NCBI GenBank assembly: GCA_013334735.1
Contig: JAAXXA010000002.1
Span: 1-35,543 of the forward strand
Direction of reading: 5' to 3'
Length of the DNA: 35,543 nt
Source: Bacteroidota bacterium
Lineage (GTDB): Bacteria; Bacteroidota; Bacteroidia; Bacteroidales; CG2-30-32-10
Shown one piece after another: positions 2,537 to 35,486 of the stretch (positions are counted from its first letter, which is position 1; each line of letters opens with the position of its first letter). The notes beneath the pieces were generated by a model. The model was given only the letters and a program-made list of their open reading frames with translations, was not told where the DNA came from and did not search any database. The position numbers and the translations under genes were made by a program.

Positions 2537-2748
2537 TTTGATTCTCCGCAATACTTTTCAAAATTCTGTTCCCATTTCTTTTGAAAATCCGCGAATGATT
2601 GAACAGTAACATGATTGTAATTCTTGATAACATTTTCGATTGCTTTTTCGTAGAACCATTGAAGCCAAGTAATGATTTCTTCGCTGCTTTTGTTTTGTTT
2701 CTCCATAACGTCAAGGTTGAACTGAAGAGCTAACTCGTAACTACTCAT
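2533..2748 (-). CDS. Hypothetical 71-aa protein
   Basis: The start at MSSYEL follows GGAGG-TTTTT, immediately after the T8 tract of the leader terminator. Confidence 0.75.
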   Translation of the reverse strand: MSSYELALQFNLDVMEKQNKSSEEIITWLQWFYEKAIENVIKNYNHVTVQSFADFQKKWEQNFEKYCGESK

Positions 2749-2758
2749 AAAAACCTCC

Positions 2759-2821
2759 AAAAAAAATTAGCCACAACCCCGACCGATTTCTCGGCCCCCG
2801 CAAAGGAAGGGCTGTGGCTAA
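2759..2821 (-). terminator. Intrinsic terminator in the leader of the 2748 gene
   Basis: On the minus strand a 13-bp stem forms (TTAGCCACAGCCC/GGGTTGTGGCTAA, one G-U). Inside it is a 12-nt bulge and a GGCCGA-GAAA-TCGGTC hairpin. The structure is followed by T8 and then GGAGG. Confidence 0.6.
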
Positions 2822-2829
2822 TAAGCCGG

Positions 2830-2863
2830 CCTAATATTTGTTTTGCGGGTGCCAAATATTAGG
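2830..2863 (-). promoter_or_regulatory. Leader hairpin (11-bp perfect stem CCTAATATTTG/CAAATATTAGG)
   Basis: Read directly. Its loop CCCGCAAA (minus) is complementary to TTTGCGGG in the bulge of the downstream terminator. Confidence 0.6.
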
Positions 2864-2923
2864 TCAAAAACTTTTTACAGTTTTTAATTTATTTTTGGAA
2901 AATAATTGATTTATTATTTATTA

Positions 2924-2951
2924 ATTATAACTACATTTTTTAATTTGTCAA
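2924..2951 (-). promoter_or_regulatory. Sigma70-type promoter (TTGACA-16-TATAAT) pointing left
   Basis: The -35 is at 2951..2946 and the -10 at 2929..2924. It overlaps the last codons of the RHH gene. Confidence 0.6.
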
Positions 2952-2952
2952 G

Positions 2953-3108
2953 TCATTTTTTATTTTTTTCTAAAAATTCAATTAATATAGTTTTAACAAG
3001 GTTTGAAATTGGCCTATTTTGTCTTACAGCCTCATCGTTAAGACCCTTCAATAATTCTTCAGAAATGCGAAGATTAAACCTTTTGTTATTTATTTGTCCA
3101 ACATCCAT
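2953..3108 (-). CDS. Ribbon-helix-helix (CopG/Arc-like) DNA-binding protein, 51 aa
   Basis: Hand translation gives MDVGQINNKRFNLRISEELLKGLNDEAVRQNRPISNLVKTILIEFLEKNKK. This fits the classic RHH pattern (beta strand KRFNLRI, then two helices). AAGGACGG lies upstream. The ORF is below the ORF-track cutoff. Confidence 0.75.
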   Translation of the reverse strand: MDVGQINNKRFNLRISEELLKGLNDEAVRQNRPISNLVKTILIEFLEKNKK

Positions 3109-3150: not shown

Positions 3151-3190
3151 TTGCACGACCCTTCCATAAATTTATGCTTTTTTGCACGAC
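3151..3190. promoter_or_regulatory. Direct repeat TTGCACGAC x2 (period 31 nt) upstream of the RHH gene; operator-like
   Basis: Copies lie at 3151-3159 and 3182-3190 (GTCGTGCAA on the minus strand). The spacing is about 3 helical turns. Confidence 0.4.
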
Positions 3191-3244
3191 TTCGGACGTG
3201 CTTTAAGTGGTTTAATGCGGCATTGCTGCCGCACCCGTCACCAT

Positions 3245-4594: not shown

Positions 4595-4713
4595 ATAATC
4601 TCCTTCCCTCTATTGAGGGAGTGTTACAACCGGAGTAATTAGTTCCGATTGACCCCCTTTTCTTAGGAGGATTTTGAGACCGCAAAACTTTGCGCTCTCT
4701 GTTGTACGCCCAC

Positions 4714-4759
4714 AGTATGACACAGATTTCTAAGTTTGTCAATCCCACTTTCAGTCGGA
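4714..4759 (-). promoter_or_regulatory. Leftward promoter P_A: TCCGACT element + TTGACA-17-TGtCATACT
   Basis: The -35 is at 4742..4737, the -10 at 4719..4714 with an extended TG, and the upstream element AGTCGGA (plus) at 4753-4759. The same architecture occurs at 28675-28719 and 31624-31669. Confidence 0.6.
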
Positions 4760-4928
4760 TTTTTACAAAAATGGGAGAAAATGCTTGTAGATCAAGGAAA
4801 AAAACTTTAAAAAATATTTTTTTTTGTTCAAAAACCCCGACCAAACGTCGGTATTTATGCCAATAATATATATTTAATTATATATAATATAAGTAATAAA
4901 AAAATAGTTGAAAAAAAACAAACTCGTA

Positions 4929-5018
4929 GAACTATTGATAACACTACATTCTTATTTTTTTTGGTATCGTAACTCTATATAAGACAATTAGTCACGAACT
5001 ATTTGACAACACTATATT
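4929..5018 (+). repeat. Two copies of a ~22-nt box GAACTATTGAYAACACTAYATT
   Basis: Copies lie at 4929-4950 and 4996-5018. The second contains the -35 of the rightward promoter. Confidence 0.7.
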
Positions 5019-5032
5019 TTTTATGTTATAAT
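5003..5032 (+). promoter_or_regulatory. Rightward sigma70-type promoter (TTGACA-18-TATAAT)
   Basis: The -35 is at 5003-5008 and the -10 at 5027-5032. It sits upstream of a ~440-nt leader preceding terS. Confidence 0.6.
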
Positions 5033-5252
5033 TCTTCTATAAGAGCTACAATTAGCGACCGAGCTATGCGAGGCAACCGTTTACCCATACGACCAACAAC
5101 TAACAAAATATATACCACAAATATATATTAGGTTTCACAATTATCACATCATCACCCACAAATCAACATCCCAAAAGTATCAAAATTTAGCTATCCACAA
5201 CAAACAAATTCCTATAACATGTATTATGTTAAGTACAACACAGTTTGTATTA

Positions 5253-5273
5253 ACATTGTAGGTACATTGTAGG
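5253..5273 (+). repeat. Tandem ACATTGTAGG x2 (period 11) with a third partial TACAT
   Basis: Read directly at 5253-5262 and 5264-5273. Confidence 0.85.
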
Positions 5274-5330
5274 GGGTACATCAAAAATTGGGGGAGTGTT
5301 TCTAGGTAGGGTTTGTTTAGAGATTACCTC

Positions 5331-5352
5331 TTAATGACATATTAATGACATA
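5331..5352 (+). repeat. Perfect tandem duplication TTAATGACATA x2
   Basis: Read directly at 5331-5341 and 5342-5352, about 130 nt upstream of terS. Confidence 0.9.
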
Positions 5353-5375
5353 TAGGAATTATTTTAGGGGTAAGC

Positions 5376-5501
5376 ATGACAAATTTAGATATGGCATTAC
5401 TGATAGACAGGTATAGAAGAGAGATATGTAGATTATGTAATGTATTGAAGTTAGAAATAATATTTGAGAATGATGGGGTAATATGGAGAATAAGATATTA
5501 A
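5376..5501 (+). CDS. Possible 41-aa ORF overlapping the terS start
   Basis: AGGGGT lies upstream of the ATG at 5376. The translation is MTNLDMALLIDRYRREICRLCNVLKLEIIFENDGVIWRIRY. Support is weak. Confidence 0.25.
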   Translation: MTNLDMALLIDRYRREICRLCNVLKLEIIFENDGVIWRIRY

Positions 5502-28674: not shown

Positions 28675-28719
28675 ATTCTAACACAAAAATAATTTTTGTC
28701 AATCACCCTAAAAGTCGGA
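28675..28719 (-). promoter_or_regulatory. Leftward promoter P_B: TCCGACT element + TTGACA-16-TGtTAGAAT
   Basis: The -35 is at 28702..28697, the -10 at 28680..28675, and the element at 28713-28719. It points antisense toward the end of the late operon. Confidence 0.5.
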
Positions 28720-29801: not shown

Positions 29802-30319
29802 GCGGTAGCTCGATTAATTTCCGGTGTACTAACGGAGATCGTTATGATAGCTCTGCTGTATTGCTGGATGATAGAGGGTTTGAGATATTTTCCTCTCAAT
29901 ATGTCAATACCGATTCCACAAACAGCTACAAGGGTGGTCGCCTTTCCTGCGGGTGTTACTATGGGATAGTTGGATATAGGACCTCCGGTCAAAGAGTGAT
30001 AAAACTATTTTCTAGCAAAGCAGATATTACTAAGATCAAAACAGATAGAGACATTCCAGATTCAATGTTTGCTCTTTCATCAGATATACCTAATTCTAAC
30101 CATGACAATGCATATTATATTGAGTATGTTCAAATTCATTCAGGGGGCACAAGCTGGGATTATAGTCATGGATGTGTTTCTGTTTTAAACTATGGATTAA
30201 ATCCTAACGGAAAAAAATATGAAGAATTTGATAGATTGATGTCTTTTCTAAAAGACAATGAAATCATAATCATCAAACTTTCTCTCGACGAAGGAGTCAA
30301 AACTTTTACGCAGCAATAA
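29777..30319 (+). CDS. Candidate endolysin with an SHGC (YkuD/L,D-transpeptidase-like) motif (180 aa from MKILEV)
   Basis: AAGGAG RBS at the internal Met. IHSGGTSWDYSHGCVSV resembles the His...SHGC catalytic signature, though the His-to-Cys spacing is shorter than in the canonical motif. It is the last gene of the lysis region. Confidence 0.4.
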   Translation: MKILEVKRGGSSINFRCTNGDRYDSSAVLLDDRGFEIFSSQYVNTDSTNSYKGGRLSCGCYYGIVGYRTSGQRVIKLFSSKADITKIKTDRDIPDSMFALSSDIPNSNHDNAYYIEYVQIHSGGTSWDYSHGCVSVLNYGLNPNGKKYEEFDRLMSFLKDNEIIIIKLSLDEGVKTFTQQ

Positions 30320-30935
30320 GTTTGCTAATATATTCTACTCCCTTTGCATTTACTAAAGTCTGTGGTTTGTTAAATACATTTCCAGACATCTCTATAGGTT
30401 TTTCAATTACCTTAAAATATCCTTTATCCATTTCTTTCTGATAAGGTGTATTATTTCCCATCAATATATTTTTATTTCTCAATTTAGAAAATAAAGTATT
30501 TCTACCAATTCCTAAAATGTGTGCTACTTCGTTCATTGATTGCCAACTTTCAGAAGATAAAAACTTGTCGTAAGTCAATACTTTTGGTTTCATTGTTTCG
30601 ATTTGTTCTGCTTGATCGGCAGCAAGTCTAAGAGCTTCTGCGAATGTTTGCGGTAATGTAGGTTTATTTTTGTTTTCAAGTTCAATCCAACGGTCAATAA
30701 TTTTTGTTCTCAATTCTACAGAATAACCAGATATTAAAATCATTATTTCACGATGGGGCAATCTATAACATTTTCTTTCTTCTCTATTAGCTCCCATGTA
30801 AACCGCCTCAAATTTGAGGTGGTCATCTAATTGTGTTTCAATATCACGAATTACATTGTCGTGTCTTTTATTTGTTAGTTCGGCAATCTCTCTGCTATCC
30901 ATCCATAATTCCTGCTTGATAATCAAATCATTCAT
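30306..30935 (-). CDS. Rha-family regulatory protein with a KilAC/antirepressor C-terminal domain
   Basis: The N-terminus SREIAELTNKRHDNVIRDIE is typical of Phage_pRha. The C-terminus (WQSMNEVAHILGIGRNTLFSKLR) is typical of KilAC/Ant domains. Confidence 0.8.
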   Translation of the reverse strand: MNDLIIKQELWMDSREIAELTNKRHDNVIRDIETQLDDHLKFEAVYMGANREERKCYRLPHREIMILISGYSVELRTKIIDRWIELENKNKPTLPQTFAEALRLAADQAEQIETMKPKVLTYDKFLSSESWQSMNEVAHILGIGRNTLFSKLRNKNILMGNNTPYQKEMDKGYFKVIEKPIEMSGNVFNKPQTLVNAKGVEYISKLIAA

Positions 30936-30948
30936 ATTTACACCTCAT

Positions 30949-30991
30949 AAAAAAAGTCCCTGGAATCCAATTGCAGATGGAAACCAGAGAC
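30949..30991 (-). terminator. Intrinsic terminator in the leader of the Rha gene
   Basis: On the minus strand GTCTCTGGTTTCC / GGATTCCAGGGAC (10 of 13 pairs) is followed by T7. The RBS (GAGGTG) comes immediately after. Confidence 0.55.
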
Positions 30992-31057
30992 TTAAAACAC
31001 CGATTAACCGGAAAATAAATAATCTGCAATACTTATTTAAGTTCCTCTATTCTCATT

Positions 31058-31086
31058 ATTATACACCAATTTTTATCGTTTGTCAA
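31058..31086 (-). promoter_or_regulatory. Consensus sigma70 promoter (TTGACA-17-TATAAT) pointing left
   Basis: The -35 is at 31086..31081 (overlapping the stop of the upstream gene) and the -10 at 31063..31058. Confidence 0.6.
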
Positions 31087-31598
31087 GGTAAAGGTATTTC
31101 TTGAGTTATCAATATTCTTGCTTTTCTTTCACATTCCTGTGCATTCTCTTCTTCTAAATCATGCTCTTCATCATGAGTTAAATGATAGCATTCATGCATA
31201 ATTGTAACAGCTATATTATCATAACTTACATCTTCTATATAGTTTTTCATAAAGTAACTATCATCCATATTAAATACAAAATAAATAGTATTTTTTCTAG
31301 AATCATCAATATGAGAATCATTAACATAAGCTATAGCTCTCTTGCATATTCCAACTGGATAATAATCAATCTCTATTCTATTTACTTTTGCTAGTCTCAA
31401 TATTTTAATCATGTTTAAATAATTCAGTTTTTCTAACGCAATATAAATCTTAGTAGCAAACTTCTTGGGCGCAGTTACTTTCACACCATAAATCTTAAAC
31501 GTCACTTCTGTATATGGCGCAACCTGATCGTAAGCAGCCGAATGAACAAAAGAAAAAATAAAGAAGATCAATAAAACAACTAAAATAAATCGTTTCAT
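31083..31598 (-). CDS. Secreted HExxH protein (putative zinc metalloprotease), 171 aa
   Basis: It has an N-terminal signal-like MKRFILVVLLIFFIFSFVHSAAY, the HExxH motif in IMHECYHLTHDEEHD, and an AGGAGG RBS. Confidence 0.6.
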   Translation of the reverse strand: MKRFILVVLLIFFIFSFVHSAAYDQVAPYTEVTFKIYGVKVTAPKKFATKIYIALEKLNYLNMIKILRLAKVNRIEIDYYPVGICKRAIAYVNDSHIDDSRKNTIYFVFNMDDSYFMKNYIEDVSYDNIAVTIMHECYHLTHDEEHDLEEENAQECERKARILITQEIPLP

Positions 31599-31623
31599 AA
31601 ATTTCCTCCTCTTAAATATACTG

Positions 31624-31692
31624 ATTATATATTATTCATTATTGATTTGTCAATCTGCTAACAGTCGGAATTTTATCCTACTTATAGTCGGA
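31624..31692 (-). promoter_or_regulatory. Leftward promoter P_C: two TCCGACT elements + TTGACA-18-TATAAT
   Basis: The -35 is at 31653..31648 and the -10 at 31629..31624. The elements lie at 31663-31669 and 31686-31692. Confidence 0.6.
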
Positions 31693-31890
31693 TTATATTT
31701 TTGTTTGCCTGATTGTTATTTCTATTTTTGTATTGTTTAATACGCAGTGTAACTCACTATAAGAAAAATTTTTCGCAATTATTTCTTTATCTATTTCAGA
31801 TACAAACAATGTTCCGTCTTCTTCTATTTTATCAATATTAAATAATTCGCTAAATGTGGCAAGCCATGTTTTTCCGCTAACAAATTCCAT
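31693..31890 (-). CDS. Hypothetical 65-aa protein
   Basis: GGAGG RBS. It overlaps the end of the SDR gene. Confidence 0.6.
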   Translation of the reverse strand: MEFVSGKTWLATFSELFNIDKIEEDGTLFVSEIDKEIIAKNFSYSELHCVLNNTKIEITIRQTKI

Positions 31891-32656
31891 TTAGTTTCCT
31901 CCATTCTTTGTATTCATAAATTATATTTCGCATTTCATACGCATTATCTACATTATCGTCCTTAAATTTGTTTATAATACCAAAATAATCTAATAAATGA
32001 TGTAACTTTATTGGCCCAACGTTATTTTTTAAATCAAAATAAGTATTTAATTGTGTTTCTAATATTTCATAACTTATTAAAAAATGTCTTATTATATCAT
32101 ATAGTATACGTGGAGTAATGTAATATAACTTTTTATTCTCTCTAGTCGTGATATTAAACTCATCCCCATCTTTAATATGTTTCAATATATTGCTCATTAA
32201 GAATCCACTATCTAAATTTATCCATCTGCTAAAATAGGCTGGTATTCTGAGATCAATAATATTTAATTCCGGCAATAATCTGTGTTTCATTTCTAAGTAT
32301 TGTTTATTAATTTTATAATGATGCTGCCTATCTCCATATCGTATGTCTTTAGTTACAATCCAGCTACTCATATTGATATAAATAGGTTTTGTTTTATGTT
32401 TTAAATAATCAATAATTATATTGTCAATATAATTATAATCCCATAAATCCTGATAATCGATCGTTGATATTTTAGAAGCGGTTCCTTTCCCGACGCAATT
32501 GATTATTATATTAGGGTTTATTTTGTATAAATAATATTGCCATTCACTATCTCTGCATGATAAAGTGCTTAATTGAATATCTTTATCCTGTTCAAAATAG
32601 TATATCAAACCTTTAGCAATATGGCTAGTGCTACCTAATATCAATACTTTTTTCAT
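31877..32656 (-). CDS. SDR-like NAD(P)-dependent sugar reductase or epimerase (259 aa)
   Basis: It has a Rossmann-like N-terminus KKVLILGSTSHIAKG and a YxxxK (YKINK). The sugar-operon context supports the call. Confidence 0.5.
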   Translation of the reverse strand: MKKVLILGSTSHIAKGLIYYFEQDKDIQLSTLSCRDSEWQYYLYKINPNIIINCVGKGTASKISTIDYQDLWDYNYIDNIIIDYLKHKTKPIYINMSSWIVTKDIRYGDRQHHYKINKQYLEMKHRLLPELNIIDLRIPAYFSRWINLDSGFLMSNILKHIKDGDEFNITTRENKKLYYITPRILYDIIRHFLISYEILETQLNTYFDLKNNVGPIKLHHLLDYFGIINKFKDDNVDNAYEMRNIIYEYKEWRKLNGIC

Positions 32657-32657
32657 G

Positions 32658-32981
32658 TTAATCTTTGCTTGTTTCTATAACTTTGTTAATACCATATTCT
32701 ATTATATTATATCCGGTGCGATATATTTTTCCGTGTTCACTATTTTTATAAAATTTTTCATCTGGTAATTTATCTATAGTTGCCTTTTTCCATTTTTCAT
32801 ATTCTTCCCAATCACAAGATAAATAAGTTGTTCCATCAGATCGGGTTAGTATTCTATTTCCACTAGAAATAGCTTTTTTTTTCAAATAATTAACAATTGC
32901 TTTTAAAGCGTTTTCTTTTGTGTCAGACATAACATGATAAGATAATCCATAATCATTGTATTCAAAAGAATATAATTTCAT
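32658..32981 (-). CDS. Hypothetical 107-aa protein in the sugar operon
   Basis: ATGA overlap with the rfbH-like stop. No motif. Confidence 0.7.
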   Translation of the reverse strand: MKLYSFEYNDYGLSYHVMSDTKENALKAIVNYLKKKAISSGNRILTRSDGTTYLSCDWEEYEKWKKATIDKLPDEKFYKNSEHGKIYRTGYNIIEYGINKVIETSKD

Positions 32982-34174
32982 ACAAAATACTCCTCAATAG
33001 TTTTTACAATATAGTCTATTTCCTTCTTTCCAATGCCTGGATGGCAGCCTATCCACAATGTATTTTCAGATACATAATCAGCTATTGGATAATCCTGTTT
33101 ATCGCTATAAGAAAGATAGGCTGGATGCTTAGTAAAGTTACCAGCAAATAGAGGGCGTGTAGCTATTCCTTTTGATTCTAAATAATCAACAAATTGTTTT
33201 CTTCTGTTTTTATTAGAGAGTGTCATGGGGAATCCAAACCATGAAGGAATAGAATCTTTTTCAAATCCATGGAGTTTTAAATCTTTTATGTGTTTTAATT
33301 TCCCAAACAATGTAGAGTTATTCAATACTCTTTTTACTACAAACTTATCTAATCTTTTAAATTGAGCCACACCAATAGAAGCGCATAATTCAGGCATTTT
33401 TAGATTGTATCCAATATGTTCTACCACTGACTTGTGATCATAGCCAAAAGGAAGCTTTCCATATTTCTGAGAGAATCTTTTTCCGCAAAGATTATCTTTA
33501 TTTGGAGGACAAACACAAGCCCTTCCCCAGTTACAATAAGACTGGATAATATTATATAACTCAGTATCATTAGTACAGACCGCCCCTCCCTCGCCTGTAG
33601 TAATGTGATGAGCTGGATAAAAACTTAGTGTTGATATGTGTCCGAATGAACCTGTCTTTTTTTCTTTATACACACTTCCTAAAGCGTCGCAGTTGTCTTC
33701 AATCAACCATAGCTTATGCTTCTTGCAGATAGCCATAATCTTTGTCATGTTGCACGGATTCCCAAGTGTATGCACTATGAATATTGCCTTAGTCTTTTTA
33801 GTTATTTTAGATTCTATTTGATTCTCGTCAATATTAAGTGTATCCAATTTGATATCTACAAACACAGGCACTAGGTTGTTTTGTAATATTGGGTTTAAAG
33901 TAGTAGGAAATCCGCATATAGAAGTAATAACTTCATCTCCAGCTTTAATATGGTTCTTGAGATTTGGAGAAGTTAATGCTGTCATTGCTAACAAGTTAGC
34001 TGAAGACCCTGAATTACAAAGAGCAGTATGTTTTACTCCAAGATATTCTGATAATAGTTTAGGAAGTATTCTTGTGTTTTTCCCTGCCGCATAATCGCCT
34101 TTAAATACTGCTTTAATAAGCGTCCATATTTCTGGAAGTCCTGTGATAGCTTTTCCTGTTGTAATTCGTTTCAT
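32978..34174 (-). CDS. rfbH: RfbH/DdhC (E1)-type PMP-dependent CDP-4-keto-6-deoxyglucose 3-dehydratase
   Basis: Several blocks match Salmonella RfbH as I recall it: SGSSANLLAMTALTSP, GDEVITSICGFPTTLNP, SFYPAHHITTGEGGAV (His in place of the PLP Lys), NWGRACVCPPNKDNLCGKRF (Fe-S Cys cluster), GYDHK, PSWFGFPMTL. Confidence 0.9.
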   Translation of the reverse strand: MKRITTGKAITGLPEIWTLIKAVFKGDYAAGKNTRILPKLLSEYLGVKHTALCNSGSSANLLAMTALTSPNLKNHIKAGDEVITSICGFPTTLNPILQNNLVPVFVDIKLDTLNIDENQIESKITKKTKAIFIVHTLGNPCNMTKIMAICKKHKLWLIEDNCDALGSVYKEKKTGSFGHISTLSFYPAHHITTGEGGAVCTNDTELYNIIQSYCNWGRACVCPPNKDNLCGKRFSQKYGKLPFGYDHKSVVEHIGYNLKMPELCASIGVAQFKRLDKFVVKRVLNNSTLFGKLKHIKDLKLHGFEKDSIPSWFGFPMTLSNKNRRKQFVDYLESKGIATRPLFAGNFTKHPAYLSYSDKQDYPIADYVSENTLWIGCHPGIGKKEIDYIVKTIEEYFV

Positions 34175-34177
34175 TAG

Positions 34178-34891
34178 TTACTCCTTATAATTATCAATAT
34201 AACTTTTTAGTTTTGACACTTCTAAATCTCTCAGTCCTTGTGTGCCTTGATAAACAGCTTGATCGTAAGCGAACCAATTATTCATCTCATCTATAATCAA
34301 TTGATCAGGTTCTACTTTCATAAGCACAGGGCTGGAATGTTCAACCTCTATTTCTTTCAAGTATTCAGTTTTTCCAAGCTTTGAAAATACATAGTATATC
34401 CAGTTGTCAGAGAAGTAATGCTTTAACATATGACACGAATAATTTCTTGTTACCTGCAAGTAATTTTTATGAACTATATAATGACGAGGCAATGTTTCAC
34501 TTCCGGCTCCATCATTAATCCACCTACAAAATATTTTATCTTTTGTGTCTGACTTGAATTTATCTATAATAATCTTATCCCAATCTTTTGTTTTAAATTC
34601 AAGATCATTTGACACAGCAAATAACAATTCATTGTTTGCCATCTGCCCTAAGTAATTAAACTTATCATTGAGATGGTACGGACGTTTAAATTGGTGTAAT
34701 TGATAATCCAATTCTAAATCATTGACGTCTAACTTTTGAAAGAATTCATACAACTGGTCTTCTTCATCTACGTCATAGCCAAACACTATTTCAATATTTT
34801 CTGGATCGTTAACAGTATCAATAATAGATTGCAAACACTTTTTTAGTTTCTCAAGTCGTCCTCTTGTAGCTAGCAATAATGATATCTTCAT
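34178..34891 (-). CDS. Putative GT-A/GT2-like glycosyltransferase (start moved to MKISLLL)
   Basis: AAGGAGG lies upstream of the ATG at 34891. The N-terminus MKISLLLATRGRLEKLKKCLQSIIDT...IEIVFGYDVDEED fits the GT2-like layout. Confidence 0.45.
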   Translation of the reverse strand: MKISLLLATRGRLEKLKKCLQSIIDTVNDPENIEIVFGYDVDEEDQLYEFFQKLDVNDLELDYQLHQFKRPYHLNDKFNYLGQMANNELLFAVSNDLEFKTKDWDKIIIDKFKSDTKDKIFCRWINDGAGSETLPRHYIVHKNYLQVTRNYSCHMLKHYFSDNWIYYVFSKLGKTEYLKEIEVEHSSPVLMKVEPDQLIIDEMNNWFAYDQAVYQGTQGLRDLEVSKLKSYIDNYKE

Positions 34892-34901
34892 GTTTCCTCC
34901 T

Positions 34902-35486
34902 TTATAAACTTGGCAATAATACTTGGTTAGGATCACACATTACTTCGCATATACATGGATTTTTACTATTAATTATTTCATCCAAGCGTTTATCAATTAA
35001 TCCTATATCATCAATTAAATCCCATCGAATGTCATAAGCTTCTGAAAGTGATAATAAATAAGGAAATTTAAAATCAGTTCCATTCCTTGCGCCATTAAAA
35101 AACTTATTGCTTGTGTTTTTTATAGTGAGATACCCGCCATTATTAATCACAAATAGTTTAACATTGAGATTATAATTTCTTATAGTAATCAATTCCTGTA
35201 TGTTAAATTGAAAACTTCCATCACCTGTTAATCCTATCACTGGCCTGTTATCAGCAACAGCCGCTCCCACACAAGCAGGCAATGTAAATCCCATCTCTGC
35301 CTGACTGCTTGTGATATATCTCATTCCTTCTTTAAGCTTTAATGCTTGAGGACAAGCAAAAAATACTGAGCCAGCGTCTGCTATAACTACTGCGTTATCT
35401 GGAAGATGGTCTGATAGCTTTTCTAAAAAATAATAAAGATTAATATTATTATCTGAATTAATTAAATGAGATTGAATTTCCATCAT
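34902..35486 (-). CDS. Thiamine-diphosphate-binding (PP) domain protein, acetolactate-synthase/YerE-like C-terminal module only
   Basis: GLTGDGSFQFNIQELITIRNYNLNVKLFVINNGGY is the ThDP-binding GDG...NN motif. At 194 aa it is only the C-terminal third of a full-length enzyme. Confidence 0.85.
   Translation of the reverse strand: MMEIQSHLINSDNNINLYYFLEKLSDHLPDNAVVIADAGSVFFACPQALKLKEGMRYITSSQAEMGFTLPACVGAAVADNRPVIGLTGDGSFQFNIQELITIRNYNLNVKLFVINNGGYLTIKNTSNKFFNGARNGTDFKFPYLLSLSEAYDIRWDLIDDIGLIDKRLDEIINSKNPCICEVMCDPNQVLLPSL

Follow-up and report, generated by a model that had tools for sequence, protein, structure and literature searches.

The minus strand of the 35,543-nucleotide contig JAAXXA010000002.1 from a Bacteroidota bacterium assembly (GCA_013334735.1; the whole stretch is called the window below) carries a leader directly upstream of a gene for a Rha/KilAC-type phage antirepressor (rha), with a consensus promoter at its beginning and an intrinsic terminator at its end (30949-31086; unit A). 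Our analysis suggests that unit A is a self-contained leader-RNA/attenuator unit within a recurrent, unnamed family of phage leader RNAs, which is defined by structure and follows a logic similar to that of c4, CI, and IsrK. Judged from the sequence, we assign this reading a probability of roughly 60%. The central element is a 9-nt complementarity between the loop of a 5' hairpin (site a1) and the loop of the terminator hairpin (site a'). This pair would be part of a hypervariable loop-loop code, through which leader RNA that ends at the terminator probably acts on transcripts made from that promoter.

The sigma-70 promoter of unit A (31058..31086, minus strand) has the form TTGACA-17-TATAAT and matches the consensus at 12/12 positions, with the -35 hexamer at 31086-31081 and the -10 hexamer at 31063-31058. 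The -35 hexamer includes the TGA stop codon of the upstream open reading frame (ORF), which encodes a 171-aa protein with an HExxH motif (HECYH; 31083..31598, minus strand) for which neither a Pfam nor a PHROG match was found. This ORF possesses a perfect promoter of its own (31653-31624, minus strand), and its transcripts also enter the leader and terminator of unit A. In total, four perfect TTGACA/TATAAT promoters were observed in the window, compared to 0.16 expected from shuffled sequences. They are located at 5003-5032 (plus strand) and at 31653-31624, 31086-31058, and 2951-2924 (minus strand), and all of them head transcription units, i.e., the rightward structural operon, the HExxH gene, and two leader units including unit A. 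Based on this excess, we regard the perfect promoters of the window as real signals and the promoter of unit A as credible. The transcription start site was predicted about 7 nt past the -10 hexamer, at ~31051 (minus strand). The RNA starting there reads AAUAGAG-GGAACUUAAAUAA[GUAUUGCAGA]UUAUUUAUUUUCC-GGUUAAUCGGUGUUUUAA- in its 5' part and -GUCUCUGG-UU-UCCA[UCUGCAAU]UGGA-UU-CCAGGGAC-UUUUUUU-AU-GAGGUG-UAAAU-AUG in its 3' part.

In the terminator hairpin (30956..30991, minus strand), an outer stem of 8 bp and an inner stem of 4 bp are separated by a UU/UU internal loop, and the inner stem is capped by a loop of 8 nt. On the DNA level, it reads GTCTCTGG-TT-TCCA[TCTGCAAT]TGGA-TT-CCAGGGAC from 30991 to 30956, followed by T7 at 30955-30949, and the hairpin plus U7 tail has a folding energy of -21.8 kcal/mol. 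The leader RNA is predicted to end at the U7 tract (30949..30955, minus strand), which gives it a length of about 103-105 nt. Three nucleotides past the U tract, the Shine-Dalgarno sequence (SD) of rha begins (GAGGTG, 30946-30941), which is separated by a 5-nt spacer from the start codon (ATG, 30935-30933; whole element 30933..30946, minus strand), resulting in a terminator-to-rha distance of 13 nt. The chosen ATG at 30935 agrees with homologues beginning with MND or MNE. The gene itself (30306..30935, minus strand) encodes a 209-aa protein with Phage_pRha and ANT/KilAC domains (Pfam, 1.5e-15 and 2e-23) and matches phrog_63, 'anti-repressor Ant' (1.2e-55); the term antirepressor is thus used here as a family name. 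The Rha/ANT ORF lies directly 3' of the leader on the same strand with no promoter in between. As there is no room for a promoter between the U tract and the SD, Rha would be made only from transcripts that pass the terminator, and we firmly infer that it can be obtained only via read-through. When we looked for a leader peptide, the sole ORF within the leader (TTG 31029, 33 aa) turned out to lack an SD, and the 13 nt between the terminator and rha contain no upstream ORF (uORF). The initial annotation had described this stretch as a promoter-leader-terminator unit guarding the Rha/KilAC antirepressor, with a perfect promoter overlapping the HExxH stop codon and a hairpin plus T7 terminator (30991-30949) just before the ribosome-binding site (RBS) of Rha, and the sequence anatomy bears out each of these elements. 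The same applies to the claim that the plus-strand 9-mers ATTGCAGAT (30970-30978) and ATCTGCAAT (31022-31030) form a perfect inverted repeat, with 9/9 positions being complementary.

On the RNA, site a1 (AUUGCAGAU, about +22..+30; 31022..31030, minus strand) is carried by the 10-nt loop of the 5' hairpin HP1 (GGAACUUAAAUAA / UUAUUUAUUUUCC; 31010..31045, minus strand), which is AU-rich and weak (-4.1 kcal/mol). Site a' (AUCUGCAAU; 30970..30978, minus strand) consists of the 8-nt terminator loop and the last base of the inner 5' stem. The complementarity as such reaches into neither the HP1 stem nor the terminator stem. Both sites are predicted to be accessible, with unpaired probabilities of 0.85 for a1 and 0.89 for a' and of 0.34 for the remaining RNA, and the a1:a' duplex is worth -11.2 kcal/mol. 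When the 85-90 nt upstream were compared to the terminator interior, shuffled sequences yielded a complement of at least 9 nt with a p-value of 0.0013-0.01. Forcing the 9-bp helix as a nested alternative resulted in -18.2 kcal/mol versus -31.0 kcal/mol for the minimum free energy (MFE) structure, i.e., a structure that is 12.8 kcal/mol worse. In nascent RNA reaching up to the end of the loop, the 9-bp helix is the MFE structure (-14.3 kcal/mol) because HP1 is weak. Site a' emerges only ~14-21 nt ahead of the termination point, and the outer 8-bp stem of the terminator can still close around the paired a'. We also searched unit A for a stem-competing antiterminator, but the best duplex between the upstream region and the 5' strand of the terminator reached only -5.4 kcal/mol (p = 0.36). 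The a1-a' pairing is hence a loop-loop (kissing) or H-type pseudoknot contact and not a stem-competing antiterminator.

Two further repeats involve the sequences of unit A. A 22-nt, 77%-complementary inverted repeat (30889-30910 versus 30969-30990) connects the 5' half and loop of the terminator with codons 9-16 of rha. The corresponding duplex between leader and coding sequence (CDS) amounts to -20.9 kcal/mol (p about 0.007), and in the long read-through isoform the MFE structure switches to this pairing. It was seen in unit A and was not found in the other units, and we dropped it as a family feature. Furthermore, a third exact copy of ATTGCAGAT is found at 280-272 (minus strand) inside the ORF at 137-442, on the same strand as the leader. 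As about 0.3 copies per 71 kb are expected by our own estimate and the copy is predicted to be folded into a stem, we judged it to be coincidental and did not consider it as a trans target.

The window contains a second unit of this kind. A mechanical scan of the 35.5 kb for the order hairpin, T-run, SD, and ATG identified only two units, both carrying a complement of this kind. Unit B (2745..2951, minus strand) comprises a TTGACA-16-TATAAT promoter, HP1, a terminator, T8 at 2766-2759, the SD GGAGG, and ATG 2748, and an operon of small ORFs, roughly 2.6 kb in length, is gated by it. Its HP1 (CCUAAUAUUUG[gcaCCCGCAAAa]CAAAUAUUAGG; RNA loop [GCACCCGCAAAA]) is an 11-bp hairpin, the loop of which presents a1 (CCCGCAAA, 2849-2842). 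Site a' (UUUGCGGG, 2804-2797) is enclosed by a terminator stem of 13/14 bp (2821-2767) and followed by a GAAA-capped hairpin. The complement measures 8 nt (p about 0.005). The recognition pairs of units A and B are orthogonal and their sequences unrelated, in line with the earlier proposal that the 2759-2951 unit repeats the same logic in a different sequence. Close to unit B, we observed a type-P5 twister ribozyme (3185-3242, minus strand; Rfam RF02684, 50.3 bits versus a gathering score of 37.6, E 9.6e-8), which is located in the leftward early operon between an ORF of ~31 codons (3340-3245) and a gene for an Arc-like ribbon-helix-helix (RHH) protein (2953-3108). It is predicted to cut the polycistronic transcript of this operon shortly before the RHH gene and unit B.

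The architecture recurs in front of related rha genes. We collected the DNA around the nearest Rha homologues and around ~240 more distant loci from metagenomes, genomes, and IMG/VR. Among the nine nearest readable loci, seven carry the unit (L001, L003, L244, L245, L247, L248, and L249), while it was not found in L251 and L252. The nearest Rha proteins, which are 63% identical, are encoded in L001 and L003, both with the unit. Each of the seven loci has its own strong promoter (9-12 of 12 matches) and a predicted RNA of about 96-137 nt, in which a1 (+6..+25) and a' (+54..+82) are 34-55 nt apart and a T-run is immediately followed by the SD. The pair is 6-11 nt long and its sequence differs at every locus, i.e., GACUAC in L001, CUGAUAAC in L003, UCUAAC in L244, CAAAAACCAC in L245 (10 nt; partner GUGGUUUUUG), GCUCAAC in L247, UCGAUCC in L248, and CAUAGCC in L249. 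More distant Rha/KilAC loci with the unit include L005 (GUGGUAGUC), L007, L048, L197 (11 nt), and L063. A MAFFT alignment of nine leaders revealed conservation of the -35 and -10 hexamers, the T-tract, and the SD/ATG only, and no covariance model was built because such an alignment would provide almost no information. The initial annotation had proposed a comparison with homologues, with relatives that keep the terminator but lack the complement as the refuting outcome; the relatives keep both, with co-varied sequences. No close relatives of the phage were found in INPHARED (blastn), and IMG/VR yielded none in searches with the protein, with the exact pattern, or with a pattern that fixed the stem and left the loop free. 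One locus has an additional element: in L245 (2880-3000; L246 is identical), the 10-nt loop-loop pair is accompanied by a 5' copy (UCGAGGG) of the 3' strand of the terminator. The resulting antiterminator duplex (-12.1 kcal/mol, p < 0.003) is the only clear case among 14 units.

Statistics across the units point in the same direction. In 15 units, the longest complement between upstream region and terminator interior had a mean length of 7.7 nt for own pairings and of 5.1 nt for cross-unit pairings, and complements of at least 7 nt were present in 87% of own versus 8% of cross pairings. The combined shuffle p-value for these 15 units was 1.7e-11 (Fisher), although part of the set originated from a survey that scored complementarity, which has to be held against it; for the eight units picked by protein similarity alone, the value is still significant (Fisher p about 2e-6, our own arithmetic from per-unit p-values). 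In an unbiased 941-kb survey, terminator-like hairpins directly followed by an SD and a start codon were classified as RBS-adjacent; 22% of them had a complement at p ≤ 0.02, compared to a share of 4% in the remaining 867 terminator-like hairpins (Fisher p 1.5e-4). Chance is excluded as an explanation of the 9-nt pair. The structural placement of the sites is likewise recurrent. According to our averages for 14 units, the mean unpaired probability is roughly 0.86 for a1, 0.79 for a', and about 0.3 for the rest of the RNA. Site a1 lies within the apical loop of HP1 in 12/14 units, and a' is either the apical terminator loop or is positioned right after the 5' strand of a long closing stem, before an inner hairpin capped by a GNRA or UNCG tetraloop. 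Two negative controls gave the expected outcome. No recurrent complementarity between the terminator interior and the downstream RBS/CDS was detected in the 14 units (combined p 0.99), and in unit A the longest such complement measured 6 nt (p 0.30). A comparison of the upstream region with the 5' strand of the terminator revealed no recurrent antiterminator either, this element being absent in 12/14 units, clear in L245, and possible in unit B.

From these data, we propose the following mechanism. The consensus promoter would yield an RNA of ~105 nt composed of HP1, a linker, and an intrinsic terminator abutting the rha SD. Most transcripts would halt at the U-tract and give rise to a small RNA, and Rha would be translated only from the fraction that is read through. 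The a1-a' contact would be the counterpart of the a1-a' pairing in c4. The free terminated leader RNA, which bears both loops, would probably recognize transcripts of this promoter, either nascent or read through, that are derived from the same or a sibling genome, and pairing with them would set the amount of Rha. Such pairing could lead to repression or activation, acting through termination, through translation beside the pseudoknot, or through stability. Since no two related phages share the pair, and units A and B do not either, it probably represents a specificity code for RNA-RNA recognition. A more tentative extension, which we consider possible yet doubtful, is a widespread phage 'RNA immunity code', in which kissing loops would limit an abundant leader RNA to transcripts of its own promoter type and control antirepressor or early operons by dose, time, or superinfection. 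It would operate with neither an RBS target nor an antiterminator helix and would be distinct from c4, CI, and IsrK.

Besides the composition of the 15-unit set, several points weigh against the proposed leader-RNA unit. As a' appears only shortly before the termination point, an effect on termination of the same transcript is kinetically doubtful in units with a short terminator, and an 8-nt loop is sterically strained if it is paired throughout. The translational block known from c4 and CI, which is followed by Rho termination in c4, cannot apply because an a2-like site at the RBS/CDS is missing. Searches at E ≤ 10 covering 30600-31800 and unit B returned no match to C4, c4-2, or IsrK. The co-variation spans highly diverged units and is not a base-by-base phylogenetic test, since the nearest Rha is only 63% identical, and the architecture was present in only about 10% of the Rha-homologue loci (13/142).

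Four other explanations have to be compared with the proposed unit. The initial annotation had implied that the 9-mer conditionally undoes the terminator, and a corresponding cis attenuator would work by pairing of the 9-mer with the nascent terminator loop, which blocks or weakens the terminator, while a signal that frees or masks the 9-mer switches Rha. The nascent-RNA fold described above, in which the 9-bp helix is the MFE structure up to the loop end (-14.3 kcal/mol), is compatible with this view, as is the fact that the 9-mer takes one base of the inner stem and that a fully paired 8-nt loop cannot stay closed, so that the upper 4-bp stem would be lost; moreover, L245 does have a true antiterminator. 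However, the complement in unit A is directed at the loop and interior and stops short of the stem, the outer 8-bp stem can form as part of a pseudoknot, and the nested helix is worse by 12.8 kcal/mol. Together with the lack of a stem-directed antiterminator in 12/14 units, with the long stable HP1 stem of many relatives, in which a1 can kiss but not form a linear helix, and with the 'complex' units that hold a' in an internal loop compatible with the closing stem, this makes the cis attenuator unlikely, and conditional undoing of the terminator was not supported. A constitutive element, also rather unlikely in our view, would combine the terminator of the HExxH unit with a small stable RNA and a fixed low leak of Rha; the pairing would compact or stabilize the RNA (as a nuclease-resistant or tRNA-like fold), or the small RNA would hit host targets. 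Small-RNA genes indeed typically combine a strong promoter with a strong terminator and a U-tail, neither an alternative structure nor a ligand-type aptamer was detected in the leader, and the inner hairpins of the relatives have GNRA/UNCG tetraloops like those in stable structural RNAs. Yet structural tertiary contacts are usually conserved in sequence, whereas here all pairs differ and the two units within the genome are orthogonal, as is typical for determinants of specificity like those of P1 versus P7 c4. Furthermore, the tight and conserved juxtaposition of U-tract and SD before a regulator gene suggests control at the level of read-through.

The remaining two explanations involve proteins or DNA. 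In phage lambda, a constitutive strong promoter produces a short terminated RNA ahead of further genes (PR'-6S RNA-tR'). Unit A has a similar layout, and the leader could be a site for a Q-, N-, or put-like factor that lets the polymerase ignore the terminator later in infection, with the kissing fold as the recognition or polymerase-modifying structure. The fact that unit B gates a whole 2.6-kb operon, together with the many small early ORFs without assigned function, would fit such protein-dependent antitermination. Nevertheless, we regard it as improbable: no Q- or N-like protein was recognized, conserved nucleotides as expected for a bound RNA are missing beyond the promoter, T-tract, and SD, and nut, qut, and put sites have no hypervariable complementary loops. 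It is very improbable that the 9-mers are half-sites of a DNA operator, e.g., for an Arc-like repressor, or a coincidental inverted repeat. Perfect repeats in a transcribed region below a strong promoter, the Arc-like RHH gene in the genome, and the third ATTGCAGAT copy at 280-272 might point to an operator, but the distance between the half-sites would be 34-55 bp in all units, a covarying stem of its own encloses a1 in 12/14 units, the terminator encloses a', equally close downstream DNA has no complement, and the recurrence statistics exclude chance. We rejected the operator on account of the spacing and the hairpin framing of both sites.

Concerning the genome context, the initial annotation had proposed unit A as a possible lysis/lysogeny or superinfection control point. 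The lysis/lysogeny view was not supported, as neither an integrase nor a CI-type repressor was found among the ORFs scanned, only the Arc-like RHH gene beside unit B. The HExxH gene is preceded by a gene block of sugar or cofactor type (31877-35486, minus strand), which comprises a DegT/DnrJ aminotransferase (32978-34174, minus strand; 2.1e-90), a family-2 glycosyltransferase (34178-34936, minus strand), and an ORF with only a C-terminal thiamine pyrophosphate-binding domain (34902-35486, minus strand). By its gene content, this block could be a module for the modification of DNA or surface glycans. Between the divergent early and structural modules, about 880 bp (4600-5480) lack a convincing ORF; within this region, about 480 nt of leader would separate the perfect promoter at 5003 (plus strand) from the first gene oriented rightward (5483). 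Another promoter with 11/12 matches at 28702 (minus strand) is oriented antisense into the plus-strand region around 28.6 kb. At the other end, positions 1-105 are occupied by a tandem repeat with a 6-nt period (ACCACG on the plus strand, GGTCGN on the minus strand), which amounts to 17.5 copies and extends up to the contig end. On the minus strand, an ATG at about 125 precedes these copies, whose translation would be a repeat rich in Gly, Arg, and Ser. As the contig ends inside this tandem repeat, it is probably incomplete.

Control of antirepressor genes by RNA is known from a few model phages, i.e., P1/P7 (c4), P4 (CI), P22 (sar), N15 (CA), and Gifsy-1 (IsrK). The units described here would add a further leader-RNA family that is defined by structure, has no conserved sequence, escapes detection by Rfam, and is found in an equivalent position across several lineages of uncultivated phages. 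Its combination of strong promoter, 5' hairpin, SD-fused terminator, and complementary loops could serve as a descriptor for annotation. With about 105 nt and a single 9-bp contact, unit A is also a compact and testable system for relating a loop-loop contact in a terminator-bearing leader to gene output; an example of a suitable a1 mutant is the replacement of AUUGCAGAU by AUUCGAGAU. Should the pair work in trans, phage-phage specificity or immunity would have a new determinant.

We finally compared the units with known RNA systems. Rfam searches covered the whole window at gathering score and, with a limit of E ≤ 10, both units and ten related loci; the leaders remained unmatched, also with regard to aptamer families for ligands, tRNA, or proteins. 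The only matches obtained were the twister-P5 ribozyme elsewhere in the window and a c4-2 RNA (RF02944, 52 bits) in L033 at 2403-2478, which served as a positive control and whose loop matches an upstream site and the start-codon region. In L015 (about 150-295), on which Rfam was silent, we observed a 16-nt triple resembling seqA/seqB/seqC, with copies upstream of and over the start codon and the complement between them. Thus, two loci of Bacteroidota-style phages, L033 and L015, have c4-type RNAs directly upstream of distant Rha homologues, i.e., in the same position as the units.

Platforms such as riboswitches, T-boxes, and attenuators rely on a mutually exclusive antiterminator helix that uses nucleotides of the terminator stem. 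Antisense attenuation in plasmids pT181 and pIP501 starts with loop-loop kissing, and a pre-emptor helix uses the terminator stem. Unit A shares with attenuators and riboswitches the intrinsic terminator in a 5' leader with a U-tract followed by an RBS, but unlike all of these systems, pT181 and pIP501 included, it lacks an alternative helix that uses the stem. The immunity RNA CI of P4 originates from the leader of the operon that it controls; its internal seqB is complementary to the upstream seqA, and its action involves premature termination. P4 CI and N15 CA therefore resemble our units as leader-derived RNAs with an internal sequence complementing an upstream site. In contrast to the units, where a downstream site is absent, they need such a site (seqC), processing from a longer RNA, and termination linked to translation and Rho.

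The similarities to c4 (RF01695, c4-a1b1 motif) and c4-2 (RF02944) go further. In the P1 annotation, a1/b1 are located about 25-45 nt past the promoter, with a1 ~25 nt after the -10 of P1c4, and a2/b2 over the icd RBS. According to the literature, the loops a'/b' of c4 (7-8 nt) pair with a1b1 and with a2b2 over the RBS, and c4-type RNAs have a long P1 stem, a P2 capped by a tetraloop, and sometimes a fused terminator (PMC2864571). Like c4, the units are encoded in the leader of an antirepressor operon and are co-transcribed with it, and a short loop sequence pairs with an upstream hairpin site in the first ~25-50 nt of the same transcript. Inner hairpins with GNRA/UNCG tetraloops and recognition sequences that vary among related phages are further shared traits, and c4-2 of L033 likewise precedes a distant Rha homologue and ends in a U-tract. 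On the other hand, the units have one recognition pair instead of two, the a2/b2 target over the downstream RBS is absent, and an intrinsic terminator is fused to the SD, whereas c4 is excised by RNase P.

IsrK of Gifsy-1 is a small RNA whose terminator is partly read through into the orf45-anrP antirepressor mRNA, with the short form targeting the long one in trans. To this end, it opens a structure in which the RBS of a small upstream ORF is concealed, translation of this ORF being coupled to that of anrP (PMC4825925). IsrK has in common with unit A its own promoter, a small RNA of ~100 nt, a Rho-independent terminator, and an antirepressor gene reached by read-through, the latter being predicted in our case. 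In unit A, however, there is no uORF, the terminator directly adjoins the SD of rha, and the pairing that is conserved involves two loops of the leader. Due to the missing second pair, RBS target, uORF, and model match, and to the fusion of the terminator to the SD, we did not file the units as members of c4 or IsrK. The closest known kind is nonetheless represented by the c4, CI, and IsrK leader RNAs, which govern antirepressor operons.

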